A DNA stretch of 64,000 nt. Origin: an uncultured virus (IMG/VR IMGVR_UViG_3300025034_000006) (taxonomy: Duplodnaviria > Heunggongvirae > Uroviricota > Caudoviricetes). Location: IMG/VR virus record IMGVR_UViG_3300025034_000006. One strand, written 5' to 3'. The notes under the pieces were generated by a model. The model saw only the letters and a program-made list of their open reading frames with translations, ran no database searches and had not been told where the DNA came from. Made by a program: the position numbers and the translations under genes. This document shows, piece after piece, positions 8,678 through 53,017 of the stretch (position 1 is the stretch's first letter; the number at the start of each line of letters is the position of its first letter).

Positions 8678-10804
<2,127 letters not shown>

Positions 10805-43169: not shown

Positions 43170-43243
43170 CAAACTTTTTTCTTGACCAACTAGGTGGAGC
43201 GTCATAGAGAACGAATCACCGACAACAAATGGAGGATACAGAC

Positions 43244-43810
43244 ATGACGAATGCAGTGAAAACCCCCGCCCGTGGGCGCAAGAAGATCGATCAGGCAGCC
43301 CTCGACGCTGCGAACGAAGCCTCCAAGGCACTGAGCGAGAAGCAGCAGCAGGCCGCTTCGAAGCCCCGTGCCAAGGCGGCTCCCAAGACCCGCGCCAAGG
43401 CCGCTACTGGTCTGGGCAAGCAGCGTCAGGCAGATGCCGCTGCTCCGGTGATGGAAAAGCAGGGGGCTTCGGCTTCCGGTAAGTCCGCTCCGGTCGAAGA
43501 GCTTCGCGGCGGCACCAAGCAGGTGCTGATCACCGAAGCTGTGATGGTCGGACGTTCCGGCCGGCCGGCTGGTGTCGAGGAATACCCGTTCGGCGAGCTT
43601 CCGCCCGCCTACAAGGATGAGAACGGACAGATCGTTGGTCTCTCGTTCTTCATCCCGATGACTGACAAGGCCGAGGGCAAGCTTTCTGCTGCCCGCAAGC
43701 GCCACAAGTGCCTGTTCTGGAGCCGCACGGTTTACGAGCAGGTCAATGGCAAGGGCCCCAAGGTCGAAGGTCTTCGCATCTGGCGTGGCACGCCTGACAT
43801 CAAGGCGTAA
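43244..43810 (+). CDS. Basic Ala/Lys-rich protein, possibly DNA-binding
   Basis: GGAGG SD; histone-like N-terminus; ends GLRIWR. Confidence 0.55.
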   Translation: MTNAVKTPARGRKKIDQAALDAANEASKALSEKQQQAASKPRAKAAPKTRAKAATGLGKQRQADAAAPVMEKQGASASGKSAPVEELRGGTKQVLITEAVMVGRSGRPAGVEEYPFGELPPAYKDENGQIVGLSFFIPMTDKAEGKLSAARKRHKCLFWSRTVYEQVNGKGPKVEGLRIWRGTPDIKA

Positions 43811-43820
43811 CCACGCAAAC

Positions 43821-43853
43821 GGAAGGGCCGTCACGAAGGTGGCGGCCCTTTCC
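43821..43853 (+). terminator. Intrinsic terminator
   Basis: AAGGGCCGTCAC/GTGGCGGCCCTT hairpin followed by TCCTT. Confidence 0.7.
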
Positions 43854-43931
43854 TTATAGTGAGAGCCAAATAATTTTCACTGACTGTCATTTTTATGTTG
43901 ACACTGACAGTGAGAATCGGTAATTCGGCCC

Positions 43932-44150
43932 TCCAACGTCTGCTCCATGGTTTTCCGAGGGGCAGGAACAGCCGGAGTCACTCTGACCCCGCAGCGTCGA
44001 ACTTGGGCGCGAGCGAGTCATTGGCCGGTCTGGTGCGGATACGTTTCGTGTCAAGGGCGGGTAGAACGGGGGAAGCCCCGAGATCACCGGCCCCCAGCAC
44101 GATAGGCCAAGCCAGCGCAAGTGGTCCTGTCACGCGGTAAGTCATGGAAT
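43932..44150 (+). ncRNA. Unassigned structured RNA (~215 nt)
   Basis: Own promoter TTGACA(43898)-17-TAATTC; TCCATGG/TCATGGA closing pair; no credible ORF. Confidence 0.45.
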
Positions 44151-44209
44151 ATCTCGACGAGTTGATTTGATTAAGTGTTGACACGAATCGAATCACCTAA
44201 TAGAGAGAC

Positions 44210-44771
44210 GGAATGCCAGCCTGATGGCGATAGTGTGAGGCAACTCACATAAAGGGGGTAAGGCCACTTAACCCCGCCGGTCCCGATCGGTCAATTCAGG
44301 CAAGCGCAGTCAGGTCCGCGAGGACCGCTTCACCGGGATAACCTTGCAAACTTAGCATAGTTGGTAATGCAAACGACTCTTAATCGTGAGATCGGTGGTT
44401 CAAACCCACCAGTCTGCTCCAAACGCAAAGATTGCCACGACTGCATGTGAAAGACGCCTAATGCCATAGAGGCTTGCCTCAATGTGGCCCGACCTGATCT
44501 CGCAAGGTGATGGTTGGTTGGTGGAAGAAGTTTCGTTGGGCCCGCAAGCCCTTAATGGCTGGAGACAGTCAGCGGAATCGAAACTGCCGAATATCATGCA
44601 GTGTCACCGCAAATGCCAGCGGTCCCGTGAGAACCGGGAGAAAAAGGCGGCGTTGGTCTGGAACTGAGCTACCGCAAGGGGCTTGGTGGATAAGTCGGGA
44701 AGGTGACTCGCAAGGTCACTATAATCTGACGAATGACGGATCGTAGCGGGTGTAATCTCAACCTGCTTCCA
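44210..44771 (+). ncRNA. GOLLD-like large structured RNA with embedded tRNA
   Basis: Promoter at 44178; many GNRA-capped hairpins; long-range pairs CTGCATG/CATGCAG and GTTTCG/CGAAAC; internal tRNA; family call from architecture only. Confidence 0.5.
44346..44421 (+). tRNA. tRNA-Lys(CTT), inside the large RNA
   Basis: Cloverleaf, loop CTCTTAA, TTCAAAC, CCA. Confidence 0.85.
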
Positions 44772-44780
44772 TTTTTCGAT

Positions 44781-44953
44781 TTCTATGTTGGCCCAGCAAA
44801 GAAGGTTAGCTACCTTCCCCTCGGTTCCCGCAGGTCAGGTCGATCCCAGCAATTCTCGAATGCAGACGGATCGTCGAAGCATCAGGTCCAGTAATTCGAG
44901 CCGTGGCTTGATCGCATTGGGCGTCGCTGCAAACCCGCTGGGTCATCATAGAA
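44781..44953 (+). ncRNA. Rod-like RNA (~173 nt), 6S-like size and shape
   Basis: Nested pairs TTCTATG/CATAGAA, TGGCCCAGC/GCTGGGTCA, CTCGAAT/ATTCGAG. Confidence 0.45.
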
Positions 44954-44960
44954 AACGATA

Positions 44961-45129
44961 GCCCGGAGTAACCGCCACAACAGATTGGTAGCTTCCATGG
45001 AAAGTTGTCGGGAGTTGGTCAGGGATGTTTAGGTGAAGTCGCCTTCGAAAGCGGCGCGGTGGATCGGAAAGCAGGGTTGATCTCCTGTGGAACGATAGGC
45101 CAGTGGTTCGACTCCACCTCCGGGCTCCA
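44961..45129 (+). ncRNA. tRNA-like RNA with ~130-nt body
   Basis: 8-bp acceptor GCCCGGAG/CTCCGGGC, T arm GTGG-TTCGACT-CCAC, ends TCCA. Confidence 0.6.
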
Positions 45130-45136
45130 TAACGCT

Positions 45137-45276
45137 TCACTCGTAATGAAGCTTCTCAGCGGAATGTCGGCGGTCACGCGACCTAACCGGCGATCCGTGG
45201 GTTTACACTGAACCGGCGGAAGGAAGGGCGTAGTGAACCCGGCCGAGCTTCGAGAGGCCCCATTACGAGTGATCCA
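45137..45276 (+). ncRNA. Structured RNA with 12-bp terminal stem and NCCA end
   Basis: TCACTCGTAATG/CATTACGAGTGA followed by TCCA. Confidence 0.55.
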
Positions 45277-45278
45277 TT

Positions 45279-45402
45279 TGTGATCGGGCCGGCGGCACCA
45301 GATAGGTTTAAGGCGAGTGGACTCCCGTCGAACGGAGACGACAGACCCGGATAAAAACCGTGTATGGGTGTTGCTAGTGCTTTGGCCGCCGGCCTGATCA
45401 CA
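45279..45402 (+). ncRNA. Structured RNA closed by 18-bp stem
   Basis: TGTGATCGGGCCGGCGGC/GCCGCCGGCCTGATCACA. Confidence 0.5.
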
Positions 45403-45408
45403 GATGTT

Positions 45409-45494
45409 TCACTTGCAACAAGGGAGGCGGGCACCGTCGGGAAACCGGGACGGATGATTCGCGAACTTTAGTCCGCTCTCCTTGTTGCGAGTGA
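45409..45494 (+). ncRNA. Long hairpin RNA
   Basis: TCACTTGCAACAAGG...GCGGGC pairs with GTCCGC...CCTTGTTGCGAGTGA. Confidence 0.45.
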
Positions 45495-45682
45495 TGTTCG
45501 AGTTTTTCTCACTTCCCTGTCCGCAGGGGTGACCCGGTAGGTAACCAAGGGTGGTTCGAATATCCTCGCATTTAGTTCCTGTGGGTTCCATGGAGCCCCT
45601 TGAATCCTCAAGCAGGTGACAGAGAGTTAAAGGAGCCGCCCTGCTCCGAAACCAGATAAAATGGGTGAGTGCAATTTTTTAG

Positions 45683-45711
45683 TTGACATTCGAATCGGAT
45701 GTCGTTACACT
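45683..45711 (+). promoter_or_regulatory. Promoter of tRNA operon 1
   Basis: TTGACA-17-TACACT with CGAATCG in spacer. Confidence 0.8.
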
Positions 45712-45763
45712 TCGATCATCAAGACCGGGATGTTCCGGCCAAACAGGATTTCAGAGTTCAACC

Positions 45764-45853
45764 ATGTTCAACGTAGTCGCCATGAATAACCCAGCAGCAC
45801 CGGCCATTATGGTCCCGGTCGCGATGGCGTGCGAACAGATGGTTGGTGGCTAG
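45764..45853 (+). CDS. Leader peptide 1 MFNVVAMNNPAAPAIMVPVAMACEQMVGG
   Basis: Between promoter and terminator; 22 of 28 post-start codons are N/V/A/M/P/I. Confidence 0.8.
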   Translation: MFNVVAMNNPAAPAIMVPVAMACEQMVGG

Positions 45854-45882
45854 GCCACTTCACTCTCCAAGCAGTTATCTCG

Positions 45883-45919
45883 ATCGGGGGCCATGGCAAC
45901 ATGGCCCCCGATTTCGTTT
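45883..45919 (+). terminator. Attenuator terminator 1
   Basis: Perfect 13-bp stem ATCGGGGGCCATG-GCAA-CATGGCCCCCGAT followed by TTCGTTT. Confidence 0.85.
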
Positions 45920-45995
45920 CAGGGTCTAGCTCAGTTGGAAGAGCGTCCGGTTTGGGACCGGAAGGCCGTAGGTTCGAGCCCTACGATCCTGACCA
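45920..45995 (+). tRNA. tRNA-Pro(TGG)
   Basis: Canonical cloverleaf, CCA. Confidence 0.95.
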
Positions 45996-46007
45996 TTTCA
46001 AGAGTAT

Positions 46008-46086
46008 CAGGCGGTAGGGGAGTCTGGCCGTCCCTACCTCCCTCGGACGGAGGGGATCGCAGGTTCGAATCCTGCCCGCCTGACCA
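46008..46086 (+). tRNA. tRNA-Pro(CGG)
   Basis: Cloverleaf, loop CTCGGAC, CCA. Confidence 0.9.
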
Positions 46087-46092
46087 AGTTAT

Positions 46093-46163
46093 AGCAGAGC
46101 CTCAGTGGGGGCGGGGCCTCATAAGCCTTTGACCCGGTGGCGCACATCCACCCTTTGCTACCA
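46093..46163 (+). tRNA. tRNA-Met(CAT), atypical (short D arm, T loop CGCACAT)
   Basis: Acceptor AGCAGAG/CTTTGCT, loop CTCATAA, CCA. Confidence 0.7.
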
Positions 46164-46301
46164 GATAGGTGACCCAGCCACCTCCTCGTCGATCGCCGAG
46201 ATCGTCAGGTGCCCCGCACGATCAGCGGAGCTAGTAAAACCACTGGGACGTTTCGAACCGTCTCGTTGAGACGCGTCTAAGCCGGAGTAATTAACCGGCG
46301 T

Positions 46302-46412
46302 ATGCGGGGCGGTTGTAGAACGAGGAGGACGCCGGTTCGAATCCGGCCACCGGGGCAAGGCTCCGGTGTAGCTCAGGTGGTTAGAGCGCCTTGTTGATTT
46401 CGTCCCCGGCAT
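46302..46412 (+). ncRNA. YrlA-like Y RNA / circularly permuted tRNA-like element
   Basis: Order is T arm, looped acceptor hairpin (CACCGG/CCGGTG), D arm; closed by AACGAGG/CCTTGTT. Confidence 0.7.
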
Positions 46413-46442
46413 CCGTCAAATCGGATGGGACAAAGAGTTTGT

Positions 46443-46518
46443 TGGTGATTAGCTCATTCAGGAGAGCGCTGGTGTCACATACCAGAGGCGGCAGGGGCAG
46501 AGCCTGCATCACCAACCA
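46443..46518 (+). tRNA. tRNA-Val(CAC)
   Basis: Cloverleaf, atypical T loop GGCAGAG, CCA. Confidence 0.85.
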
Positions 46519-46519
46519 T

Positions 46520-46597
46520 CCACGGATAGCTCAGTTGGTAGAGCGGCCGACCGATAATCGGCGTCTTGCGCAGGTTCGAGCCCTGCTCTGTGGACCA
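46520..46597 (+). tRNA. tRNA-Ile(GAT)
   Basis: Cloverleaf, loop CCGATAA, CCA. Confidence 0.9.
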
Positions 46598-46744
46598 GTT
46601 ACCAAACCCTTGACGGGGTGAGGACGCAGGGGTTAGTCTCCCTGTAAGAGCGAGACTAATAGACCGAACATTCGGCCGGCGGATGAGTTGACGACTCGCA
46701 CTCCCGGTTGATCAGTAGGTTGAGGTCTCGCTACCAGTTTATGT

Positions 46745-46828
46745 TCGGTGGTGACAGAGTGGTAATGTGCCCGGCTGTTAACCGGTGTCCCCGAAAGGGC
46801 GGAGGTTCGACCCCTCCCCGCCGAGCCA
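46745..46828 (+). tRNA. tRNA-Asn(GTT) with long variable arm
   Basis: U1-A72, G73, loop CTGTTAA, CCA. Confidence 0.85.
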
Positions 46829-46843
46829 ATTTAGGAGAAGTGA

Positions 46844-47152
46844 GTGGAACGCTACAACATCAGCTACGATCGACCCGGACGAAAACTCCGGGAGACCGAT
46901 CCGGGCCCGTCTGATACCACATGGAAAGGTGTCCGGGAACATTGGTCGAGATCGCATGATGGGCAGTTTCTCTCGGACTATCAGGAAGGTGTCGCACTGG
47001 CCCAAGCGGATTTGACCGCTGATAACCGGGACAATCGCGACGCGCTCTTGGCGGTAGAGGTAGCAGATCGCGGACTTGGCTGGGAAGCCCAGCGCGATGG
47101 TTACCTCGACACGATCGGCGAAGGAAAATACGTCGCTCGTTTGGATTTTTAA
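46844..47152 (+). CDS. Hypothetical protein within tRNA operon
   Basis: AGGAG SD plus GTG. Confidence 0.55.
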   Translation: MERYNISYDRPGRKLRETDPGPSDTTWKGVREHWSRSHDGQFLSDYQEGVALAQADLTADNRDNRDALLAVEVADRGLGWEAQRDGYLDTIGEGKYVARLDF

Positions 47153-47541
47153 TGACAGAGATGAACGTCTTATGTCTGACTTGCCAAACGGAATTGACTG
47201 GTAAACAGACCAAGTTTTGCTCACGAGCATGTCAGAACAAAAACGGTAATGTGAGGAATCAACTCTACGAAAAACAACAAGCCCGAGGCTTGAAAAGAAA
47301 AATGGAGTTGATAAACCTTCGAGGAGGTGGTTGTGAAGAATGTGGTTACAGAGATAATCTAGCTGCTTTGTGTTTTCATCATACAGATGAGACTTCAAAA
47401 GGTTTCGAGCTTACTTTAAGAGAGCTTTCGAATCACAAAGAAGAAACTATAATGAAAGAGTTCGCCAAATGTGTTGTGTTATGTCATAATTGCCATATCG
47501 AACACCACAATCCGAGCCTGAATGGCTGGTATAAGAAATAA
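47152..47541 (+). CDS. HNH endonuclease, probable homing endonuclease in the tRNA cluster
   Basis: CEECGY...LCFHH...LCHNCHIEHH; AT-rich. Confidence 0.85.
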   Translation: MTEMNVLCLTCQTELTGKQTKFCSRACQNKNGNVRNQLYEKQQARGLKRKMELINLRGGGCEECGYRDNLAALCFHHTDETSKGFELTLRELSNHKEETIMKEFAKCVVLCHNCHIEHHNPSLNGWYKK

Positions 47542-47543
47542 TT

Positions 47544-47617
47544 GATCCTGTAGCTTAGTGGTCTAAAGCTCTCTCCTCATAAGAGATGAAACGTAGGTTC
47601 AAATCCTACCGGGATTA
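47544..47617 (+). tRNA. tRNA-Met/Ile2(CAT), no encoded CCA
   Basis: Cloverleaf, loop CTCATAA. Confidence 0.85.
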
Positions 47618-47618
47618 C

Positions 47619-47693
47619 GCTTCGTTAGCTCACCAGTAGAGCGCTGCCGTGACAAGGCAGAGGTAGGAGGGGCAGCACCTTCACGAAGCACCA
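47619..47693 (+). tRNA. tRNA-Val(GAC)
   Basis: Cloverleaf, T loop GGCAGCA, CCA. Confidence 0.85.
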
Positions 47694-47699
47694 CAGTTT

Positions 47700-47777
47700 G
47701 GGGTCGCATGTTCCAAGGGAAGGCGACGGACCCTTGCAAGGTCTGTGAGGTGGGTTCGATTCCCACCGGCTCCACCA
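47700..47777 (+). tRNA. tRNA-Ala(TGC)
   Basis: G3-U70 pair, loop CTTGCAA, CCA. Confidence 0.9.
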
Positions 47778-47839
47778 TACTTGACACGGCCAAAATTTGG
47801 CCTATTGTCGGCCGAAGCAATCATGCTAAAGGAACCGAC

Positions 47840-48016
47840 ATGAACACTTTGTATAGCTGGAAAATCCGCCGGGCTGGTGCTGGTATGACCATCACTCATT
47901 CGTGCGGTAAGATCGTCAACGTCGCTGACATCGAAGCCAAGGGTGACCGGATCATTGCCACCACGGCGACTGGGGCTGAGTTCGAATTGGCGACGCCGCC
48001 CCTCCTCGCAGGGTAA
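47840..48016 (+). CDS. Small hypothetical protein
   Basis: TTGACA at 47781, AAGGA SD, ATG. Confidence 0.55.
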   Translation: MNTLYSWKIRRAGAGMTITHSCGKIVNVADIEAKGDRIIATTATGAEFELATPPLLAG

Positions 48017-48045
48017 ATTAAAAATACGCCAGTGTGATTTTTGTG

Positions 48046-48074
48046 TTGACATAACGAATCGAATCACATATAGT
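48046..48074 (+). promoter_or_regulatory. Promoter of tRNA operon 2
   Basis: TTGACA-17-TATAGT with tandem CGAATC. Confidence 0.85.
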
Positions 48075-48127
48075 TCGGCTTCAACAACGGACACAGTGTC
48101 CACCAAACAGGATTTTGAGTAACTGCT

Positions 48128-48190
48128 ATGACCTACGGATTTACCAAACGAGATCGCCGGAGAGGCGAAGAACGAGGTTTCACCTCGTAA
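48128..48190 (+). CDS. Leader peptide 2 MTYGFTKRDRRRGEERGFTS
   Basis: 14 of 19 post-start codons are K/R/D/G/E/F; 5' UTR shares CCAAACAGGATTT..GAGT with leader 1. Confidence 0.8.
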   Translation: MTYGFTKRDRRRGEERGFTS

Positions 48191-48226
48191 CCCGGTAGTG
48201 CGTAGAGCTATCGGTGTCGTTTTGAC

Positions 48227-48302
48227 GGACCTTTAGCTCAGTAGGTAGAGCAGGCGGCTCTTAACCGCAAGGTGGTAGGTTCAAGCCCTACAAGGTCCAC
48301 CA
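48227..48302 (+). tRNA. tRNA-Lys(CTT)
   Basis: Canonical cloverleaf, CCA; lies upstream of terminator 2. Confidence 0.95.
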
Positions 48303-48320
48303 AAACGACATCGATTTTTG

Positions 48321-48358
48321 AACGCCCTACCGGTCGCCCGGTGGGGCGTTTTTCGTTT
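48321..48358 (+). terminator. Attenuator terminator 2
   Basis: 13-bp stem AACGCCCTACCGG-TCGC-CCGGTGGGGCGTT followed by TTTCGTTT. Confidence 0.85.
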
Positions 48359-48377
48359 CCCGGCTGGTTCTTGGCAT

Positions 48378-48453
48378 GGACCGGTAGCTCAGTAGGCAGA
48401 GCGCGGGACTTTTAATCTTGAGGTCGTGGGTTCGAACCCCACTCGGTCTACCA
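48378..48453 (+). tRNA. tRNA-Lys(TTT)
   Basis: Canonical cloverleaf, CCA. Confidence 0.95.
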
Positions 48454-48479
48454 AGAATATCAATAGTTTACGACTAGAT

Positions 48480-48554
48480 GCGGGTGTAGCTCAGTGGTAG
48501 AGCGCCTGCTTGCCAAGTAGAAGGTCGCGGGTTCGATCCCCGCTACCCGCTCCA
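48480..48554 (+). tRNA. tRNA-Gly(GCC)
   Basis: Canonical cloverleaf, CCA. Confidence 0.95.
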
Positions 48555-48582
48555 GTCGAAGTTGTTAGTGATGAGTGATGAT

Positions 48583-48658
48583 GCAGCCGTAGCTCAGCGG
48601 TAGAGCGGGAGGCTTCCACCCTCCGTCAGCGCGGGTTCGATCCCCGCCGGCCGCTCCA
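48583..48658 (+). tRNA. tRNA-Gly(TCC)
   Basis: Cloverleaf, loop CTTCCAC, CCA. Confidence 0.9.
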
Positions 48659-48670
48659 TCACTTATTATT

Positions 48671-48745
48671 GGCCGTGAAGCCCAACGGTTGGGCAGCGGA
48701 TTGTCTATCCGAAGGTTGCGGGTTCGAATCCCGTCACGGTCGCCA
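48671..48745 (+). tRNA. tRNA-Asp(GTC)
   Basis: Cloverleaf, G73, CCA. Confidence 0.9.
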
Positions 48746-48748
48746 GTT

Positions 48749-48858
48749 TGCAGTATCGTCTAATCCCCGACAACGGGGACAGAGTGTCATGACCTCTGGG
48801 ACTAGGATGGCCGGGCGAAGAACCGGAAGATGTCGGTTCGATCCCGGCTGCTGCGCCA
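48749..48858 (+). ncRNA. tRNA-like RNA with two hairpins inserted in the D loop and an 8-nt anticodon-position loop
   Basis: GCAGTA/TGCTGC acceptor, GTCGG-TTCGATC-CCGGC T arm, CCA. Confidence 0.6.
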
Positions 48859-48916
48859 GTTAACCGGTCAGATATGACCTACAAGCCCGTCTTGTGTGCC
48901 ATATATGACCATATGA

Positions 48917-48990
48917 GGCCCTATCCTCTATGGGTAAGAGTCCACCCTCTCACGGTGAGAAACCGGGTTCGAGCCCCGGTAGGGCCTCCA
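48917..48990 (+). tRNA. tRNA-Glu(CTC)
   Basis: Loop CTCTCAC, CCA; near-duplicate of 49095-49168. Confidence 0.9.
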
Positions 48991-49009
48991 TGAATTAGTT
49001 TACGAGTTC

Positions 49010-49086
49010 GGTCTGGAAGCTCAACTGGAAGAGCAACCGCCTACGAAGCGGAAGGTTGATGGGTTCGACTCCCTCGCAGACCACCA
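49010..49086 (+). tRNA. tRNA-Arg(ACG)
   Basis: Loop CTACGAA, CCA. Confidence 0.9.
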
Positions 49087-49094
49087 ATTTATAT

Positions 49095-49168
49095 GGCCCT
49101 ATCCTCTATGGGTAAGAGTCCGCCCTTTCACGGCGAGAAACCGGGTTCGAGCCCCGGTAGGGCTACCA
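49095..49168 (+). tRNA. tRNA-Glu(TTC)
   Basis: Loop CTTTCAC, CCA. Confidence 0.9.
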
Positions 49169-49179
49169 GATAAGTCAGT

Positions 49180-49255
49180 GCCGCTTTAGCTCAACTGGAG
49201 AGAGCGCGGGCGTCCGAAGCCCAAGACCGGGGTTCGAGTCCCTGAGGCGGCACCA
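49180..49255 (+). tRNA. tRNA-Arg(CCG)
   Basis: Loop GTCCGAA, CCA. Confidence 0.9.
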
Positions 49256-49261
49256 GAGATT

Positions 49262-49336
49262 GCAGGAATAGCTCAGTGGTAGAGCGGTAGGTTGAAAACC
49301 TACGCGTCGGTGGTTCGAACCCATCTTCTTGCACCA
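49262..49336 (+). tRNA. tRNA-Phe(GAA)
   Basis: Canonical cloverleaf, CCA. Confidence 0.95.
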
Positions 49337-49343
49337 GATCACC

Positions 49344-49413
49344 GCCCCCGCCGAGGCGGGCCATGAGCCTTCTAAGCTCTAAGGCGTCGGTTCGACTCCG
49401 GCCGGGGGCTCCA
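49344..49413 (+). tRNA. tRNA-Arg(TCT), short D arm
   Basis: Loop CTTCTAA, T arm, CCA; 70 nt. Confidence 0.75.
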
Positions 49414-49453
49414 CGCCCAGATCAAAAAAAAACACCGTCAGCAAAAATAAGTG

Positions 49454-49482
49454 TTGACTCCTTTAACTTCCTTCCATATACT
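49454..49482 (+). promoter_or_regulatory. Promoter of tRNA operon 3
   Basis: TTGACT-17-TATACT; ATG begins 8 nt downstream, so the mRNA is probably leaderless. Confidence 0.85.
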
Positions 49483-49489
49483 TCGCAGC

Positions 49490-49573
49490 ATGTTCACACA
49501 GACCGCCTTGCAAAGCCTTACGGGCTCCTTACTATGCTGGCATAGCCAGTATAGTTCCCTGTCACCCTTCTAA
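49490..49573 (+). CDS. Leader peptide 3 MFTQTALQSLTGSLLCWHSQYSSLSPF
   Basis: 21 of 26 post-start codons are T/Q/L/S/C/W/H/Y. Confidence 0.8.
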   Translation: MFTQTALQSLTGSLLCWHSQYSSLSPF

Positions 49574-49608
49574 GGGAGCAGCCCTGACGCGCTGCTCTCT
49601 TTCCAAGA

Positions 49609-49705
49609 GGAGCGGTGGCAGAGTCTGGGTTATTGCGGCGGTCTCGAAAACCGTTGGACCATCGAGAGATGTGTTCCGTGGGTTCAAATCCCACTCGCTC
49701 CTCCA
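49609..49705 (+). tRNA. tRNA-Ser(CGA)
   Basis: Long variable arm, loop CTCGAAA, CCA; lies upstream of terminator 3. Confidence 0.9.
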
Positions 49706-49715
49706 GCATTTTCAG

Positions 49716-49754
49716 AGCGTCAGAGCCCACCGGGTTCTGGCGCTATTTTCGTTT
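49716..49754 (+). terminator. Attenuator terminator 3
   Basis: 13-bp stem AGCGTCAGAGCCC-ACC-GGGTTCTGGCGCT followed by ATTTTCGTTT. Confidence 0.8.
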
Positions 49755-49767
49755 CATCACAAGTTTC

Positions 49768-49860
49768 GGGTGATCTTCCCCCTGCCGGCCTGTAACCCCG
49801 GTGCCGTTTCAGAACGTGGGGGACGGATGGCGAGAGGTTCGAGTCCTCGGTCACCCACCA
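49768..49860 (+). tRNA. tRNA-Tyr(GTA), non-canonical (8/4 stems, no D arm)
   Basis: GGGTGATC/GGTCACCC acceptor, loop CTGTAAC, GAGG-TTCGAGT-CCTC, ACCA. Confidence 0.65.
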
Positions 49861-49904
49861 TTTTAGGAGAATACCTGTGAATACAGGAGCTTAATAAGAG
49901 TTAC

Positions 49905-49988
49905 GTGAGCGTGGCTTCATAGGGAATGGTATACCTTGCCGGCTCAGACCCGGTAGCTTTGGGAGTTCGAGTCTCCCCGCTCACACCA
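49905..49988 (+). tRNA. tRNA-Leu(CAG), atypical
   Basis: Loop CTCAGAC; short variable loop; extra bases before D arm. Confidence 0.8.
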
Positions 49989-49996
49989 ACTTAAAT

Positions 49997-50079
49997 CCGC
50001 GATTGGCGAAATTGGTAAACGCAGCGTCTTGAGAGGGCGTGGCCTAGGCTTCCCGGTTCAAGTCCGGGATCGCGGACCA
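49997..50079 (+). tRNA. tRNA-Leu(GAG)
   Basis: Loop TTGAGAG, variable arm, CCA. Confidence 0.9.
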
Positions 50080-50093
50080 ACACAACAAGCTAC

Positions 50094-50178
50094 GGGTGCG
50101 TGGCGACAGGGGAATTGGTAGACTCACCGGACTTAAAATTCGGCCGCTTTGTGGGTTCGAGTCCCACCGCACCCACCA
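50094..50178 (+). tRNA. tRNA-Leu(TAA), atypical
   Basis: Loop CTTAAAA; short variable loop; extra bases before D arm. Confidence 0.8.
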
Positions 50179-50193
50179 GATATGAAGTTCAAT

Positions 50194-50268
50194 GCCGGTT
50201 TAGCTCAGTGGTAGCAGCAGCGCCTTTGTAACGCGAAGACGAGGGTTCGATTCCCTCATCCGGCTCCA
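50194..50268 (+). tRNA. tRNA-Thr(TGT)
   Basis: Loop TTTGTAA, CCA. Confidence 0.85.
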
Positions 50269-50290
50269 GATAATGTTCCACGGTTTAGGT

Positions 50291-50364
50291 GTGGCCGAGG
50301 CAGAGATGGATGATGCGCCGGCTTGTGATGCCGGAGATGGCGGGTTCGAATCCCGCCGGTCACC
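50291..50364 (+). tRNA. tRNA-His(GTG)
   Basis: Loop TTGTGAT, C73, no encoded CCA. Confidence 0.85.
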
Positions 50365-50382
50365 CCTAAGCCGTGGAACAAT

Positions 50383-50457
50383 TGCCCGATCGACTAATTG
50401 GCAAGTCGCTCGACTCTGAATCCTGAAATGTAGGTTCGACCCCTGCTCGGGCATCCA
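50383..50457 (+). tRNA. tRNA-Gln(CTG)
   Basis: U1-A72, loop CTCTGAA, CCA. Confidence 0.85.
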
Positions 50458-50472
50458 ATTATGGAGTTAGTT

Positions 50473-50721
50473 ATGGAAGTTCTTGACGAACAAACTGACC
50501 AACCTGATGCCCCTTCGGCTAATGGTAAGTCAGCGCCCTTTGAAGGCGAAGACGTTGGTTCGATCCCAACAGGGGCATCCAAAAATTTAGCTCCGATCCA
50601 TCGCTGCACTGTGCGGCAGATCGGGGAGTTCACGTTTGTTCTGGTTGAACCTGATGGTTCCCTGTTCAACGTGGTCGAAGAGATCGATCGTCAGTTTATG
50701 GCTGGAGGTTGTAACAAGTAA
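50473..50721 (+). CDS. Hypothetical protein whose frame spans tRNA-Gln(TTG)
   Basis: GGAG SD plus ATG; frame is open through the tRNA. Confidence 0.45.
   Translation: MEVLDEQTDQPDAPSANGKSAPFEGEDVGSIPTGASKNLAPIHRCTVRQIGEFTFVLVEPDGSLFNVVEEIDRQFMAGGCNK
50508..50581 (+). tRNA. tRNA-Gln(TTG)
   Basis: U1-A72, loop CTTTGAA, CCA. Confidence 0.9.
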
Positions 50722-50722
50722 C

Positions 50723-50798
50723 GCCGTTTGAGCAAGCTGGGACTGCACTCCCTTGGTAGGGGAGAGAAGAGTCGGTTCGATTCCGACAAACGGCTCCA
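50723..50798 (+). tRNA. tRNA-Thr(GGT)
   Basis: Loop TTGGTAG, CCA. Confidence 0.85.
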
Positions 50799-50804
50799 AT
50801 TAGA

Positions 50805-50892
50805 GGAGGGTGCCGAGGTCGGCTCCTCAACTGGCTTGCTAAGCCGGGGTGACCCTTCGGGGTCAGGGGTTCGATGCCTCCACCTTCCTCCA
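50805..50892 (+). tRNA. tRNA-Ser(GCT), 8/4 type
   Basis: 8-bp acceptor, 4-bp T stem, long variable arm, CCA. Confidence 0.8.
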
Positions 50893-50900
50893 CAACATAT

Positions 50901-50988
50901 GGAAAGCGCGTGGGTCGGCTCCCTAATCAGCTTGGAACGCTGTCGTGACCCTTCGGGGTCAGGGGTTCGATGCCCCCGCTTTCCTCCA
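50901..50988 (+). tRNA. tRNA-Ser(GGA), 8/4 type
   Basis: 8-bp acceptor, 4-bp T stem, same variable arm as the previous tRNA. Confidence 0.8.
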
Positions 50989-51026
50989 CATACGTTGAAG
51001 CATATATCCACCCGATAATATATGCT

Positions 51027-51069
51027 TTGACATATCATGTGAAATCGCTTAGTTCACATGATATGTCAA
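51027..51069. repeat. Perfect 17-bp inverted repeat starting with TTGACA on both strands
   Basis: TTGACATATCATGTGAA-9nt-TTCACATGATATGTCAA. Confidence 0.9.
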
Positions 51070-51073
51070 TCAA

Positions 51074-51159
51074 GCCGCCTTGGCCGAGTCTGGTAAGGCA
51101 CCCGGTTGCAACCCGGAGGTTCCGAAAGGACGCAGGTTCAAATCCTGTGGGCGGCTCCA
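51074..51159 (+). tRNA. tRNA-Cys(GCA) with long variable arm
   Basis: Loop TTGCAAC, U73, CCA. Confidence 0.85.
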
Positions 51160-51173
51160 GATTATGAGGTGAA

Positions 51174-51509
51174 ATGAACGTAGACGATTTTTATGCTGAG
51201 TGCGCTGTGATCCTTGGAGTTCCCCACGAGGGCGAAGAGTTCACCCACTACAAGCGGACCCGCTGGAACAACCGGCGGCCCGGCCGAGGACGTTTTCCCG
51301 GTGCTGGTTTGATCCGCGTGTTCGGCGATGTCGTCCACATCAATATCCGTTTCCCAGTGGTCGCCCGGCAGACGATCACCGGGCTCCCCGAAGCGTTAGA
51401 TTATCTTCGCGGTCGGGTTGGCACTATGGGAGTGTCGTCTAATGGTAAGACAGCGGATTCCAAACCCGCTGACGTGGGTTCGATTCCTACCTCTCCCGCC
51501 ACACCGTAA
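51174..51509 (+). CDS. Hypothetical protein whose 3' end spans tRNA-Trp
   Basis: GAGGTG SD plus ATG; RTRWNNRRPG.GRFPG.G segment. Confidence 0.65.
   Translation: MNVDDFYAECAVILGVPHEGEEFTHYKRTRWNNRRPGRGRFPGAGLIRVFGDVVHINIRFPVVARQTITGLPEALDYLRGRVGTMGVSSNGKTADSKPADVGSIPTSPATP
51428..51501 (+). tRNA. tRNA-Trp(CCA)
   Basis: Loop TTCCAAA, G73, CCA. Confidence 0.9.
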
Positions 51510-51577
51510 TTTTCGATTGACAATCGTTGGCTTTTATCTTAACGATGTGTCTCTCAAAAATGTAGGTGGAATAACTA

Positions 51578-52156
51578 ATGGAATTTTCTGCTCGCCAGCA
51601 AACATTCGGCATCAGCCAGCTACAGCGCTTGCTTGGTAAGAGTTCGCAGGACGTTGAGCGTTTCGCCTCTTACAGTGGATGGCCCGGCTTGACCGGACAG
51701 ATGGTGACCGTGGATGTCTCCGGCGCTCTCAACATGATGGTTCACTCCACAGCGGCCGACTTCGGTGTCGAACGCAACGTGGTTGGTTCTTGGCTTCCGG
51801 GTCTGCGGACCGGGGCTCTCATGGTTCTGGGGCGGAATGTGGACAACTGGACCGTCAACGCCACTCCTGAGGAACAGAACCGATTCTTCGCCAGCCTCTT
51901 CGGCGAGCAATCGAAGGTCAATGATTTCGTTGCCACCACCCTTGGCTGTCACTCGGGCTCGGCCAAGCGCCAGATGCGCTTCCACTCTGCGACCGACGTA
52001 GAGCTTCTGTCGGAAGCAGAGTTTCTGGCCGGATACAGTTCACGATCGCCGCGCTTCGTGATCGATTCGCGAGCCCTCGCTGACCGGCTGTCGGCCATTT
52101 CGCAACCGCTCTTTGTTGCCAGCGTCAAGGTGACTTCGCCCTCGCCCTATCTCTGA
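51578..52156 (+). CDS. Hypothetical protein
   Basis: Own TTGACA promoter; 192 aa. Confidence 0.6.
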   Translation: MEFSARQQTFGISQLQRLLGKSSQDVERFASYSGWPGLTGQMVTVDVSGALNMMVHSTAADFGVERNVVGSWLPGLRTGALMVLGRNVDNWTVNATPEEQNRFFASLFGEQSKVNDFVATTLGCHSGSAKRQMRFHSATDVELLSEAEFLAGYSSRSPRFVIDSRALADRLSAISQPLFVASVKVTSPSPYL

Positions 52157-52216
52157 TTTTCGACGCGCTCTCAATTTTCAGTTGACAGTGATGTGCGAAT
52201 CGCTTATTCTTCTCCT

Positions 52217-52608
52217 CGTCAAGTGCTTCGGCATGAAGACTACGGTCGTAGAAGGCCATCTAAGTCAAGCGGAGACCCGAGGGCAGAACTCGGCACCTCC
52301 ACCAAAGACCCCTGCGGCCGCCTGAAACGCGGTCAGGGTGACGATCCGCCTAGGCTCTGGACGACGGTCCTTTGTAAGGCAGCGGGGTTCTTTGATGGGG
52401 GTGAATTTAGGATCGATCCGTAAGGCCGATGTGGAGAAGCGCCCCGTTTAGATACCGCCCGTATGCGGATCAAATTCATCAACTGTCAACGACAATGATG
52501 TGGTCGTCGCCAGCGAAGAGATTCGTCTCGCCGCGTAAGCGACAAAATCCCTAGGGCCTCACACCTCTAGGTGGCGCGTGGTCCCGAGCGTAGCAACAGT
52601 TTCGGGAC
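52217..52608 (+). ncRNA. ssrA: Two-piece circularly permuted tmRNA
   Basis: Acceptor piece ends CACCTCC-ACCA at 52304; spacer hairpin; coding piece starts GGGGGTG at 52397 (G3-U70); tag frame 52485-52538 VNDNDVVVASEEIRLAA*. Confidence 0.9.
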
Positions 52609-52609
52609 A

Positions 52610-52801
52610 ACATCTTTTTCGCCAACGTCTCGTCCTACTGTTCTAGGCGGTCGAAAGCGAGGGTCACGGCTGAGCGGCCCGGCTGATATTCTGGTTCGAA
52701 TCCGGAACAGGGGGATGTAAACCTCCTAGCCATGGTGGGAAGGCGCGGGCGTCTGGGTTCGAATCCCAGCCCAAACGTCGGGGCGTTGGCGAAAGAGATG
52801 T
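52610..52801 (+). ncRNA. Y-RNA-like RNA with two T-arm hairpins
   Basis: ~23-bp closing stem; GTCGAAAG motif; two GGTTCGAATCC loops; D-arm-like TAGCC..GG..AGGC. Confidence 0.6.
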
Positions 52802-52857
52802 AAAATAGTTATTGACGAACCGGACGAATCATCCTATTTGTTTGTCATCGAGTTTAT

Positions 52858-52962
52858 CGGGGAAGTGGCCTTAACCAGTGGCCGAAGCACGAGAAGAGAT
52901 CGCCGGGTGCCCGGAGGATTGTTGAGGATCGTGTGGACGGGTTCGTAGCCCGGCCCCCGCCA
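52858..52962 (+). ncRNA. tRNA-like RNA ending in CCA
   Basis: Promoter TTGACG at 52812; CGGGG/CCCCG ends; CGGG-TTCGTAG-CCCG T-like arm. Confidence 0.45.
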
Positions 52963-53017
52963 GTTACCGCCGGGAGATGAAGGTCTGTCTCCAACTCGCT
53001 GTGAAGCTCCCGGCATT

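Follow-up and report, generated by a model that had tools for sequence, protein, structure and literature searches.

Organization of the tRNA operons

Three tRNA operons lie on the plus strand of the window (the whole 64,000-nt stretch of viral DNA that was analyzed), with a promoter and a short ORF 5' of the terminator in each. Their features are as follows.

45683..45711, plus strand: promoter 1, -35 and -10 hexamers with a 17-nt spacer (10/12 consensus; position kept in 7 lineages)
45764..45853, plus strand: leader ORF 1, 29 codons and stop (22/28 residues Pro, Met, Val, Ile, Asn, or Ala)
45805..45819, plus strand: candidate antiterminator strand, leader 1 codons 14-19, predicted to pair with the T1 5' arm before the 3' arm is transcribed
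45846..45858, plus strand: small hairpin with the leader 1 stop codon in its loop (read from the lineage alignment, uncounted)
45883..45920, plus strand: terminator T1, hairpin 45883-45912 (13-14 bp stem, 4-nt loop, T-rich tail; RNAfold)
45920..47777, plus strand: array 1, tRNAs for Pro (two), Val, Ile, Asn, Met, Val, and Ala, with structured spacers and two ORFs in between
48046..48074, plus strand: promoter 2 (11/12 consensus positions)
48128..48190, plus strand: leader ORF 2, 20 codons (14/19 residues Lys, Gly, Asp, Glu, Arg, or Phe)
48192..48203, plus strand: putative antiterminator 5' strand (region 2), starting 2 nt past the stop codon and pairing with 48322-48333
48210..48315, plus strand: tRNA-Lys(CUU) at 48227-48302 with a 15-bp flanking helix (48210-48224 with 48301-48315)
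48320..48361, plus strand: terminator T2, hairpin 48320-48351 (14 bp, T-rich tail)
48378..49413, plus strand: array 2, tRNAs for Lys(UUU), Gly (two), Asp, an odd tRNA-like element, Glu (two), Arg (three), and Phe
49454..49482, plus strand: promoter 3 (consensus scan)
49490..49573, plus strand: leader ORF 3, 27 codons (21/26 residues Ser, Tyr, Leu, Thr, His, Gln, Cys, or Trp)
49574..49599, plus strand: post-stop hairpin adjoining the leader 3 stop codon (9 pairs, 100% paired, 5 compensatory)
49609..49705, plus strand: tRNA-Ser(CGA), between leader 3 and T3 (ARAGORN)
49716..49754, plus strand: terminator T3, hairpin 49716-49744 (13 bp, T-rich tail)
49768..51501, plus strand: array 3, tRNAs for Tyr, Leu (three), Thr (two), His, Gln (two), Ser (two), Cys, and Trp, with two small ORFs

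All three promoters claimed in the earlier note were recovered by a consensus scan (10-11 of 12 positions, 17-nt spacers), which gave 9 promoter-like sites in 43500-52500 compared with 4.2 +/- 1.8 in shuffles. Behind each promoter was the claimed ORF of 20-29 residues (29, 20, and 27 codons). A terminator consensus scan listed T2 and T3 and did not list T1, which was identified by RNAfold and a hairpin finder. T1 lies directly 3' of leader 1 and abuts tRNA-Pro (start 45920), and the tRNA following T2 begins at 48378. As no promoter fits between a terminator and the next tRNA, the arrays can be transcribed solely by terminator read-through. The proposed order of leader, terminator, and array held for operon 1, but in operons 2 and 3 tRNA-Lys(CUU) and tRNA-Ser(CGA) precede T2 and T3. 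Because of this position, both tRNAs would be made whether or not the terminators form.

ARAGORN assigned Pro (two), Ile, Asn, Met, and Ala to operon 1; Lys (two), Gly (two), Asp, Glu (two), Arg (three), and Phe to operon 2; and Ser, Leu, Thr (two), His, Gln (two), Cys, and Trp to operon 3. The tRNA-Val genes rest on Rfam (47619-47690) or manual reading (46443-46518). The tRNA-Tyr (about 49768-49860) is a manual reading of the fold, at a place where ARAGORN gives Tyr in phages L02 and XM05, and Leu-CAG and two further Ser tRNAs needed relaxed thresholds. The sets had been described as disjoint; this is true of the canonical tRNAs but not of the tRNA-like element in array 2, which has a CAU-type anticodon loop (48749-48857). 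A search of 43000-53000 for cis-regulatory RNA families, T-boxes included, gave nothing at E values up to 1 except chance matches of plastid UTR families on tRNAs.

Leader codons match the downstream arrays

The match between leader codons and arrays is far above chance. Our recount, with the initiator Met dropped, reproduced the claimed in-set counts of 22/28, 14/19, and 21/26, and each leader did contain every member of its own set. Between them the leaders sample all 20 amino acids, with 6-8 per leader. Cross-matching leaders (rows) to sets (columns) gave [22,4,2], [0,14,5], and [2,3,21], with the out-of-set residues of leader 1 confined to codon 2 and the tail. When leader composition was tested, as the earlier note had proposed, against random divisions of the 20 amino acids into sets of 6, 6, and 8, none of 2,000,000 reached the observed 57/73 (maximum 54, mean 24.5, sd 6.7). 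Binomial tails against long-ORF composition were 7e-7, 1.4e-3, and 1.5e-7 for leaders 1, 2, and 3. When all short ORFs starting with ATG were scored in the six frames of the window (364 ORFs), each leader ranked first or second for its own set.

At the level of individual codons, the Lys codon read solely by tRNA-Lys(CUU), which accounts for 87% of Lys codons in the long ORFs of the phage, is absent from leader 2 in 10/10 lineages, and the single Lys codon of this leader is AAA. Leader 3 lacks a cognate codon for the pre-terminator tRNA-Ser in 8/10 lineages. Avoidance of the codons of these two tRNAs is consistent with both escaping control. Glu(CUC) had no cognate leader codon in 9/9 lineages where it was called, and that for Arg(UCU) or Arg(CCG) was missing in some lineages. 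Leader codon diversity was not above that of ordinary genes.

The match is retained among relatives

The three arrays and the same partition are kept in Erythrobacter phages L02 and XM05, Sphingobium phage Lacusarx, and IMG/VR contigs. We compared 27 leader copies from 7 (operon 1), 10 (operon 2), and 10 (operon 3) lineages; these form one clade with several near-identical members, such that independent observations are far fewer than 27. Arrays in related phages lacking a codon-matched ORF, which the earlier note had named as evidence against its reading, do occur (Lacusarx array 1 has no matched leader). The full amino-acid set was present in 27/27 leader copies. In-set residues numbered 19-22 of 27-30 for leader 1, 14-15 of 17-19 for leader 2, and 20-23 of 21-26 for leader 3. 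Across the 27 arrays, default ARAGORN calls fell outside their own operon's set in 2 of 245 cases, and gene order within arrays varied.

As judged from the alignments, leader substitutions between lineages stay inside the set. Summed over pairs of leader 3 sequences, the aligned residues differed at 312 positions; both belonged to the set at 200 of these and neither did at 10. The Cys, Trp, His, Tyr, and Gln codons of this leader are shuffled in order between lineages, with all of them kept. ORF length also varies, with the frame remaining open and its start and stop codons keeping their register relative to the helices that follow.

The expectation that leader codons co-vary with array content was borne out in Caulobacter phages of two other genera, whose leaders match a different tRNA set and are unrelated in sequence to those of the window. 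Bertelyvirus phages CcrBL9, C1, and RB23 have a 39-codon leader with 33/38 residues in the 8-amino-acid set of the array and 8/8 members present. Lys is encoded by AAG in this leader, and tRNA-Lys(CUU) lies behind it. The CcrColossus leader, likewise of 39 codons (29/38 in set), has no Trp codon and its array has no tRNA-Trp, so that codon and tRNA are gained or lost together. None of the RcXuper arrays had a matched leader, and one was also absent from the Bambus main array and from small Gly/Thr, Trp/Gly, and Glu/Asp arrays of Caulobacter phages.

Candidate antiterminators pair with the terminator 5' arms

A complement to each terminator 5' arm, as claimed, was present in the leader region of all three operons. 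Operon 2 is, on comparative sequence evidence, the best-supported switch among the three. Its predicted antiterminator helix begins 1-2 nt past the stop codon, encloses tRNA-Lys, and shares the T2 5' arm. Over 10 lineages, pairing holds in 97% of the cells for its 11 pairs, and in 2 of these pairs both sides have changed. The helix around tRNA-Lys(CUU) extends this antiterminator, and 8 of its 15 pairs are compensatory, i.e. changed on both sides. The operon 2 covariation score was reached by 0/500 shuffles, and slid controls were 37-46% paired. In the lineage alignment T2 is 98% paired with 2 compensatory pairs, and T3 is 95% paired with 5. Judged by such covariation, the terminators are real.

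When transcripts were cut before the terminator 3' arm, folding paired 48193-48203 with the T2 5' arm and 45805-45819 with the T1 5' arm. Masking a ribosome footprint over the antiterminator segment of either operon lowered this pairing. For operon 1, codons 14-19 were the predicted partner of the T1 5' arm in 6/7 lineages, even though the XM05 terminator sequence differs; the segment is invariant among the 7 lineages and showed no covariation. The hairpin around the leader 1 stop codon has a stem in every lineage, differing in sequence, and is also found in CcrBL9. A ribosome footprint at this stop codon leaves the antiterminator strand uncovered, so termination in operon 1 would need a putative fold-back.

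In operon 3 the leader ATG lies 7 nt past the -10 hexamer in 9/9 aligned lineages, and the message is therefore probably leaderless. A hairpin inside the leader (49532-49554) holds Cys, Trp, His, Ser, Gln, and Tyr codons and is 85% paired, with 4 compensatory pairs. Seven nucleotides in the loop of the post-stop hairpin (49584-49590) are invariant and can pair with 49717-49723 in the T3 5' arm. This pairing is kept in 62/63 cells and never varies, the one mismatch, in Lacusarx, being uncompensated; at 7 bp it was not above shuffles.

A model for attenuation of tRNA genes and its alternatives

Our sequence analysis suggests, with a probability of about 0.72, that three ribosome-mediated transcription attenuators gate the phage's own tRNA genes, with slow decoding of a leader leading to read-through into its array. 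The core of the earlier note, leader-peptide attenuation that samples the amino acids of its own array, survived all in-silico tests run. Under fast decoding, a ribosome would reach the stop codon and cover or unwind the antiterminator segment in operons 2 and 3 (the 12 nt past the leader 2 stop and the post-stop hairpin loop of leader 3). In operon 1, the segment (codons 14-19) would instead fold back onto the upstream half of the ORF. With the segment unavailable, the terminator would form and the array would be off. If any tRNA of the set were scarce or uncharged, the ribosome would stall inside the leader ORF, the free segment could pair with the emerging terminator 5' arm, and RNA polymerase would continue into the array. 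The new tRNAs would relieve the stall and close a negative feedback loop. The phage would thus probably make a tRNA set only when ribosomes run short of that set. Depletion of the tRNA pool could result from phage codon demand, host shut-off, or a tRNA-cleaving defense, and plain supply-and-demand feedback fits as well as the putative host anticodon nuclease trigger of the earlier note.

In the folding model, the terminator probability of the full transcript at equilibrium was insensitive to ribosome position; for this reason the attenuation model rests on kinetics. The distance from stop codon to terminator is about 130 nt in operons 2 and 3, and one or successive ribosomes would need to hold the site for seconds.

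Either sign of control is compatible with the equilibrium model, and the leaders might be translated and codon-matched, with a coupling that differs from classical attenuation, which we consider unlikely. Efficient translation might open the post-stop hairpin and promote read-through, so that tRNAs would be supplied only as long as translation proceeds. In operon 3, a ribosome terminating at the leader stop would melt hairpin 49574-49599 and could free both loop and 3' arm, and the operon 1 strand is free with a ribosome at the stop codon. In operon 2, however, the antiterminator begins so close to the stop that a terminating ribosome must cover the strand, and such feed-forward would shut off replacement tRNAs exactly at shortage. 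Leader translation might alternatively serve mainly to shield the tRNA precursor, itself untranslated, against Rho or RNases, but conserved intrinsic terminators with T-rich tails make Rho unneeded.

More doubtful still is a reading in which the short ORFs are untranslated and the structured 5' leaders act as RNase III, P, or E processing stalks, 5' stabilizers, or leaky terminators, the amino-acid match being a by-product of constraints on RNA sequence. The leaders are indeed highly structured with much invariant nucleotide sequence, the tRNA-Lys stalk resembles a processing substrate, and Shine-Dalgarno signals are weak (leaders 1 and 2). Structure alone, however, does not predict three ORFs with complete, mostly exclusive own-array sets, nor a match that persists in every copy through changed residue order, frames that stay open and in register through length changes, or unrelated Caulobacter phage leaders that match a different set. 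It is very improbable that the ORFs encode functional small peptides (e.g. acting on the translation apparatus) placed before the arrays for co-expression: those of CcrBL9, C1, and RB23 are annotated as hypothetical proteins and leader N-terminal residues are conserved between lineages, yet composition rather than sequence is conserved (the central residues of operon 3 are permuted), the peptides have 17-30 residues without a shared motif, and the array match and terminator switches would be left unexplained.

Relation to known systems

Leader-peptide attenuators of enterobacterial amino-acid operons include the multivalent thrL (Thr, Ile) and ilvL (Ile, Leu, Val), as well as trpL, hisL, leuL, and pheL; the pheL family is the subject of PMC3082878. 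The phage operons share their layout, in which a promoter and a short ORF with many regulatory codons precede an intrinsic terminator whose 5' arm can also enter an alternative helix. Stalling likewise would report a shortage of charged tRNA, and one leader can sense more than one amino acid. In contrast, the phage system would regulate tRNAs themselves and not biosynthetic enzymes. Its leaders sample 6-8 amino acids through single or few codons each, without runs, and the three partition all 20. A complete tRNA gene inside the antiterminator loop would escape control in two operons, and one leader is probably leaderless. The pheM/pheST attenuator also controls a part of the translation machinery that deals with the amino acid being sensed, but its target is a synthetase, its signal a single amino acid, and its setting cellular, not viral. 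T-box riboswitches similarly sense tRNA charging and use an intrinsic terminator upstream of translation-related genes; they bind uncharged tRNA directly and need no ORF, unlike the phage leaders.

Our literature searches turned up no description of attenuation control of tRNA genes; the general principle of leader-peptide attenuation is established (PMC1183508). In mycobacteria, leaderless poly-Cys short ORFs are Cys-responsive attenuators (bioRxiv 10.1101/834739). They too are 5' ORFs whose codon content sets downstream expression, but as presented in the accessible text they sense one amino acid and target protein genes. The bmrB leader of Bacillus subtilis bmrCD likewise uses ribosome-mediated transcription attenuation that reports translation rather than one amino acid (PMC4191407). 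There, the signal is ribosome-targeting drugs, and the accessible account involves neither a codon match to the products nor tRNA genes.

Phage tRNAs have been proposed as replacements for tRNAs cut by host defenses (eLife 2023, PMC10264068), and a PARIS preprint links them to a host tRNA-cutting defense (10.1101/2024.01.02.573894). In a term search of the accessible text of PMC10264068, none of terminator, promoter, attenuat-, and leader occurred. Both studies have in common with ours large phage tRNA sets that sustain translation when host tRNAs fail; to the extent of their accessible text, they address tRNA sequences and rescue, whereas the present operons concern regulation.

Organization of the three tRNA operons

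The window is a piece of phage genome, encoding a family A DNA polymerase, helicases, ribonucleotide reductase, an NAD-dependent ligase, an amidase and an integrase-family gene. Within its RNA-gene block (about 44.3 to 52.6 kb), a promoter scan placed one promoter-like site, matching 10-11 of 12 consensus positions, ahead of each of three tRNA arrays. An ATG-initiated leader ORF starts and stops between each promoter and its array. The leader ORFs stay open in 7, 10 and 10 lineages for operons 1, 2 and 3, respectively.

Elements of the three tRNA operons
45683, promoter-like site of operon 1
45764-45853, leader 1
45883-45912, terminator T1, found by RNA folding and a hairpin finder and not in the consensus terminator scan; abuts tRNA-Pro
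48046, promoter-like site of operon 2
48128-48190, leader 2
48320-48351, terminator T2, from the consensus terminator scan; behind tRNA-Lys(CUU) at 48227-48302
49454, promoter-like site of operon 3
49490-49573, leader 3
49716-49744, terminator T3, from the consensus terminator scan; behind tRNA-Ser(CGA) at 49609-49705

All three operons carry an intrinsic terminator between leader and array with no promoter behind it, and T2 and T3 show covariation. The T-rich tails lie 0, about 17 and about 14 nt from the next tRNA in operons 1, 2 and 3. As this leaves no room for a promoter, the arrays can be expressed by read-through only. The earlier note had described the order promoter, leader, terminator, array for all three units. 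This holds for operon 1, but in operons 2 and 3 the first tRNA (Lys-CUU and Ser-CGA, respectively) precedes the terminator.

The leader 3 ATG lies 7 nt past the -10 hexamer in all nine aligned lineages, so close that the operon 3 message is probably leaderless. Messages of this kind are common in Alphaproteobacteria. In most lineages, the 5' untranslated regions of leaders 1 and 2 (45740-45763 and 48104-48127) share a conserved motif following a covarying hairpin. The motif could serve ribosome binding or be recognized by a protein. A search of 43000-53000 against Rfam gave no T-box riboswitch hit at E values up to 1.

Leader composition matches the downstream arrays

Excluding the initiator Met, 22 of 28, 14 of 19 and 21 of 26 residues in leaders 1, 2 and 3 belong to the amino acid set of their own array, with off-diagonal counts of 0-5. 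Each leader includes every member of its own set. These counts and the codon match to the own array, as claimed in the earlier note, were reproduced exactly. In a permutation test, the 20 amino acids were split at random into sets of 6, 6 and 8; over 2,000,000 such partitions the total never reached the observed 57 of 73, with a maximum of 54, a mean of 24.5 and an sd of 6.7. When 364 short ATG ORFs from all six frames of the window were scored, leaders 1 and 3 ranked top for their own set and leader 2 ranked second. Binomial tails against long-ORF composition were 7e-7, 1.4e-3 and 1.5e-7 for leaders 1, 2 and 3. The match between leaders and arrays is thus real and highly non-random. The numbers of distinct codons (18, 15 and 22) are not above those of ordinary genes (null fraction at least as high: 0.89, 0.64 and 0.11), and the leaders lean weakly toward rarer synonymous codons (0.30, 0.07 and 0.016).

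The correspondence was also examined at the codon level, using simple wobble rules and ARAGORN anticodons with thresholds at 90%. Cognate codons were present in the window leaders for 6 of 6, 9 of 11 and 12 of 13 array anticodons in operons 1, 2 and 3. The consistent exceptions are the two tRNAs preceding terminators. The single Lys codon of leader 2 is AAA in all 10 lineages; this codon is not read by tRNA-Lys(CUU), and AAG makes up 87% of Lys codons in long ORFs. Similarly, the codon of the pre-terminator tRNA-Ser is absent from leader 3 in 8 of 10 lineages, though it is the commonest Ser codon (29%). Such avoidance fits a design in which the leaders would sense only those tRNAs located behind the terminator. 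Isoacceptor matching is imperfect: Glu(CUC) never has a cognate leader codon, and Arg(UCU) or Arg(CCG) has none in some lineages.

Conservation among relatives of the window phage

Relatives were found by megablast and pattern scans. Isolated relatives are the Erythrobacter phages vB_EliS-L02 (L02) and XM05 and the Sphingobium phage Lacusarx; IMG/VR contributed contigs L125, L126, L132, L135/L143, L136/L139 and L142, and a metagenome variant is L199. A 14-nt pattern scan of viral contigs was unspecific, returning at least 121 loci of which four were real (L059, L077, L079 and L090); L079 and L090 correspond to the window and Lacusarx. The metagenome scan gave 62 hits, of which 5 were real.

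The partition of amino acids among arrays is the same in all relatives, while gene order within arrays differs; L126 shows arrays 2 and 3 only. Just 2 of 245 default ARAGORN calls in 27 arrays were out of set: an odd call in L02 array 2 and a CAU-anticodon tRNA in L125 array 3. Leaders were identified in 7, 10 and 10 lineages for operons 1, 2 and 3, with in-set residues of 19-22 of 27-30, 14-15 of 17-19 and 20-23 of 21-26. No set member was missing from any of the 27 leader copies, which do not amount to 27 independent trials since many lineages are close relatives. The earlier note had expected codon-matched ORFs wherever relatives carry the same arrays. This was borne out by the 27 copies but not by array 1 of Lacusarx: no operon 1 leader was found in Lacusarx or L126, the best in-set fraction being 0.58, from a hydrophobic ORF far from the array. 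The leader ORFs of the window relatives are annotated in no GenBank record.

The divergent lineages are the most informative. The central peptide of leader 3 is rearranged among the window, L02/XM05, L125, Lacusarx and L126, with Cys, Trp, His, Tyr and Gln always present. At aligned positions that differ (distinct leaders, summed over pairs), both residues were in set in 200 of 312 cases and neither in 10. That order is shuffled while set content is kept means that selection acts on the codons present rather than on the peptide.

Two further observations concern individual relatives. In L132, leader 1 (4331-4420) has the rare Ile codon ATA in place of ATG at codon 7, and array 1 holds an extra CAU-anticodon tRNA call. 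If this is a lysidine-type tRNA-Ile, leader and array would have changed together here as well. A fourth leader was considered in L02 (L001 7607-7860) and L125 (reverse strand, oriented 10045-10300), where a hydrophobic, Leu-rich ORF of 37-38 codons with a promoter and a good Shine-Dalgarno site ends 4-5 nt before tRNA-Leu(UAA). We rejected it: having neither a TTA/TTG codon nor a terminator, this ORF is probably a small membrane protein co-transcribed with the tRNA.

Matched leaders in Caulobacter phages

A second family, independent of the first, was found in CcrBL9, a Bertelyvirus phage of Caulobacter. Its array (Pro, Thr, Lys(CUU), three Leu, His, Ala, three Ser and Trp) lies behind a 39-codon ORF annotated as a hypothetical protein. 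In this ORF, 33 of 38 residues fall within the eight-amino-acid array set and all eight members are present, against an in-set background of 0.40 in long frames and a maximum of 0.74 among 28 null ORFs of 30-50 codons. The same ORF occurs in the Bertelyvirus phages C1 and RB23. Here Lys is encoded by AAG, and tRNA-Lys(CUU) sits behind the leader. The leader region is strongly structured (z = -6.4); the stop codon lies in the loop of a hairpin, and tRNA-Pro is preceded by a terminator-like stem whose T tract is weak.

In CcrColossus, a Caulobacter phage of another genus, a 39-codon ORF that carries no annotation draws 29 of its 38 residues from its own array set. Of the nine out-of-set residues, six are Thr; at the place of the CcrBL9 tRNA-Thr, the CcrColossus record shows a pseudo-tRNA. 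The ORF contains no Trp codon, and the tRNA-Trp of CcrColossus is in a different array. Compared with CcrBL9, this pattern indicates that leader content follows array content. The co-variation between leader codons and array content foreseen in the earlier note was therefore found: the Caulobacter phages match a different set, and the Trp codon and tRNA-Trp go together.

Other arrays showed no matched leader. In Rhodobacter phage RcXuper none preceded any array, and in Brevundimonas phage Bambus the best ORF for the main array reached 13 of 27; none was found for small Gly/Thr, Trp/Gly/Gly and Glu/Asp arrays. A conserved 21-codon ORF does lie about 30 nt before the Glu/Asp mini-array of Caulobacter/Brevundimonas phages (L208 8861-8926, L212 2840-2905 and L213 3104-3169). 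It begins with the same residues as window leader 2 and contains two Glu and one Asp, with a weak set match (3 of 20); it is possibly a leader 2 homologue in reduced form.

Competing RNA structures

Of the three operons, operon 2 gives the clearest picture of a competing helix. The segment 48192-48203, twelve nucleotides beginning 2 nt past the stop codon, pairs with 48322-48333 in the T2 5' arm, and a 15-bp helix flanking tRNA-Lys prolongs this antiterminator stem. Across 10 lineages, the 11 pairs of the antiterminator helix are 97% paired with 2 pairs changed on both sides, and 8 of 15 pairs in the flanking helix are changed on both sides. None of 500 shuffles reached the covariation score, and sliding the partner reduced pairing to 37-46%. 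T2 is 98% paired, and the two structures are mutually exclusive. When the transcript was folded up to the terminator loop, before the 3' arm is made, the 5' arm was predicted to pair with 48193-48203. Of the ribosome footprints modelled, only those over the final two codons or the stop codon lowered this pairing.

In the corresponding fold of operon 1, the T1 5' arm pairs with a candidate antiterminator strand at 45805-45819 (codons 14-19), which is invariant. The same partner was predicted in 6 of 7 lineages, including XM05 with its different terminator sequence; in L125, the finder picked a wrong stem. By consensus folding, 45805-45819 can alternatively pair with the 5' half of the ORF, a fold-back with few compensatory pairs. 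Like trp, operon 1 thus offers competing 1:2, 2:3 and 3:4 pairings, although little covariation lies behind its scheme.

In operon 3, the stop codon is immediately followed by a hairpin that is 100% paired and has compensatory changes at 5 of its 9 pairs. The hairpin loop consists of a 7-mer that never varies and is complementary to a nearly invariant 7-mer of the T3 5' arm; elsewhere, both helices vary. This 7-mer pairing, a candidate antiterminator, holds in 62 of 63 cells but shows no covariation and does not exceed shuffles; the one mismatch in Lacusarx is not compensated. A second hairpin within ORF 3, built of Cys, Trp, His, Ser, Gln and Tyr codons, is 85% paired with 4 pairs compensatory. 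A 3-bp extension of this candidate antiterminator and an alternative pairing of ORF 3 codons 22-24 with the 5' arm of the post-stop hairpin were both poorly kept and were discarded. Candidates for an anti-antiterminator or pause hairpin are the predicted fold-back within ORF 1, a pairing of leader 2 codons 2-6 with the operon 2 antiterminator 5' strand suggested by MFE folding, and the post-stop hairpin of operon 3.

Full-transcript equilibrium folding with the footprint masked codon by codon barely moved the terminator probability (0.69-0.77, 0.13-0.46 and 0.78-0.82), a calculation that cannot decide a kinetic switch. In four wastewater runs labelled RNA-Seq (probably DNA), contig matches were mostly cross-matches of other organisms' tRNAs and carry no information on transcript ends or expression.

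Proposed mechanism and implications

Judged from sequence, the best explanation is that the three units are ribosome-mediated attenuators, to which we assign a probability of about 0.7. The sequence establishes the ORFs, their match to the arrays, the terminators, the competing helix of operon 2 and the absence of promoters behind the terminators; we infer leader translation, the sign of the response and its timing. A ribosome reaching the stop codon quickly would hide or unwind the antiterminator strand, allowing the terminator to form. Stalling at any in-set codon would leave this strand free, which lets the antiterminator form and transcription run into the array; the newly made tRNAs would then relieve the stall. 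Given the roughly 130 nt from the stop codon to T2 or T3, occupancy of the site would have to last for seconds, unless it is trapped in some other way.

More tentatively, the three leaders might constitute a multiplexed monitor of the tRNA pool, covering 20 amino acids and most isoacceptor families, in which loss of one tRNA induces only its replacement array. The same principle, with other partitions, might extend to at least two other phage genera; we regard this wider picture as possible but doubtful. Phage codon demand could cause such loss, as could host tRNA-cleaving defences such as anticodon nucleases. Known defences of this type include PrrC, RloC and PARIS-type enzymes. We hypothesize a counter-defence role. 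In excerpts of their genome papers, relatives are reported to encode an RtcB ligase, a CCA-adding enzyme and a peptidyl-tRNA hydrolase (PMC9127768, PMC5648845).

The proposed mechanism, attenuation, is a known one, which here would act on a new class of genes: tRNA genes. A full-text literature search outside subscription journals found no description of leader peptides or attenuators before tRNA genes. The excerpts of the L02 and Lacusarx genome papers (PMC9127768, PMC5648845) mention tRNAs 26 and 33 times and contain neither "leader" nor "attenuat", nor do these terms occur in an eLife paper on phage tRNAs and defence.

If our reading is correct, the phage would gauge, codon by codon, limitation by a given tRNA set and then supply exactly that set. 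Textbook attenuation of amino-acid operons would be extended to the adaptor molecules themselves, in the first case of a regulated product directly decoding its own sensor. Should it hold beyond the window clade, it would represent a general and so far undescribed level at which phages control translation. The reason for the dozens of tRNA genes in phages has been debated for decades, with codon compensation, late-infection supply and counter-defence as proposals; to our knowledge, how these genes are regulated has hardly been asked. Leader codon choice would tell which tRNAs a phage "worries about", making this open question testable. Leader-based reporters could read out in vivo tRNA depletion by host defence systems, and the units could provide a compact natural part for synthetic biology, sensing 6-8 amino acids per 20-30-codon ORF with a tRNA embedded in the antiterminator. 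Host-phage pairs available in culture are Caulobacter CB15 with CcrBL9, Erythrobacter with L02 or XM05, and Sphingobium with Lacusarx.

Other elements of the RNA-gene block

ARAGORN called 27 tRNAs in the window, all on the + strand; in the nearest record, all 27 tRNA hits fall within one 7-kb block. Rfam and relaxed ARAGORN added non-canonical tRNAs (Val at 47619-47690, Leu-CAG and two Ser), and manual reading of folds added Val at 46443-46518, Tyr at about 49768-49860 and Leu-UAA at 50094-50178. Non-canonical tRNAs, with D-loop insertions or unusual T arms, are numerous (49997-50178, 50805-50988 and others). Because default ARAGORN misses them, the published tRNA counts of relatives (24 and 29) may be too low.

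Array 2 contains an odd tRNA-like element (48749-48857), called by neither ARAGORN nor Rfam, with a CAU-type anticodon loop, a long hairpin replacing the D arm and a long variable region. A counterpart occupies the same place in L02 (L001 5274-5396). If charged with Met or Ile, it would break the strict partition. Array 1 holds structured non-tRNA spacers (46087-46442 and 46598-46744); 46306-46409 weakly matches YrlA, a Y-RNA-like family (37.5 bits against a gathering score of 69), and the remaining structured spacers matched no Rfam family. Two ORFs interrupt array 1 (46844-47541). The second (47152-47541), which may be a homing-endonuclease insertion, is AT-rich with a Cys/His pattern that appears HNH-like by eye; Pfam gave no hit for it at 1e-5. 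The interval separating array 1 from the operon 2 promoter contains a separate promoter-like site (47781) and a 58-codon ORF (47840-48016) matching no Pfam family.

Just upstream of the three operons, 44318-44764 resembles the large RNA GOLLD (RF02032, 122 bits against a gathering score of 150, E 2e-32). This element encloses a further tRNA-Lys(CUU) (44346-44421), and XM05 and several contigs also have a Lys(CUU) call there. Directly 3' of the arrays lie a promoter-like site at 52182 and a two-piece (permuted) tmRNA of alphaproteobacterial type at 52178-52609 (RF01849, 75.9 bits, over the cut-off).
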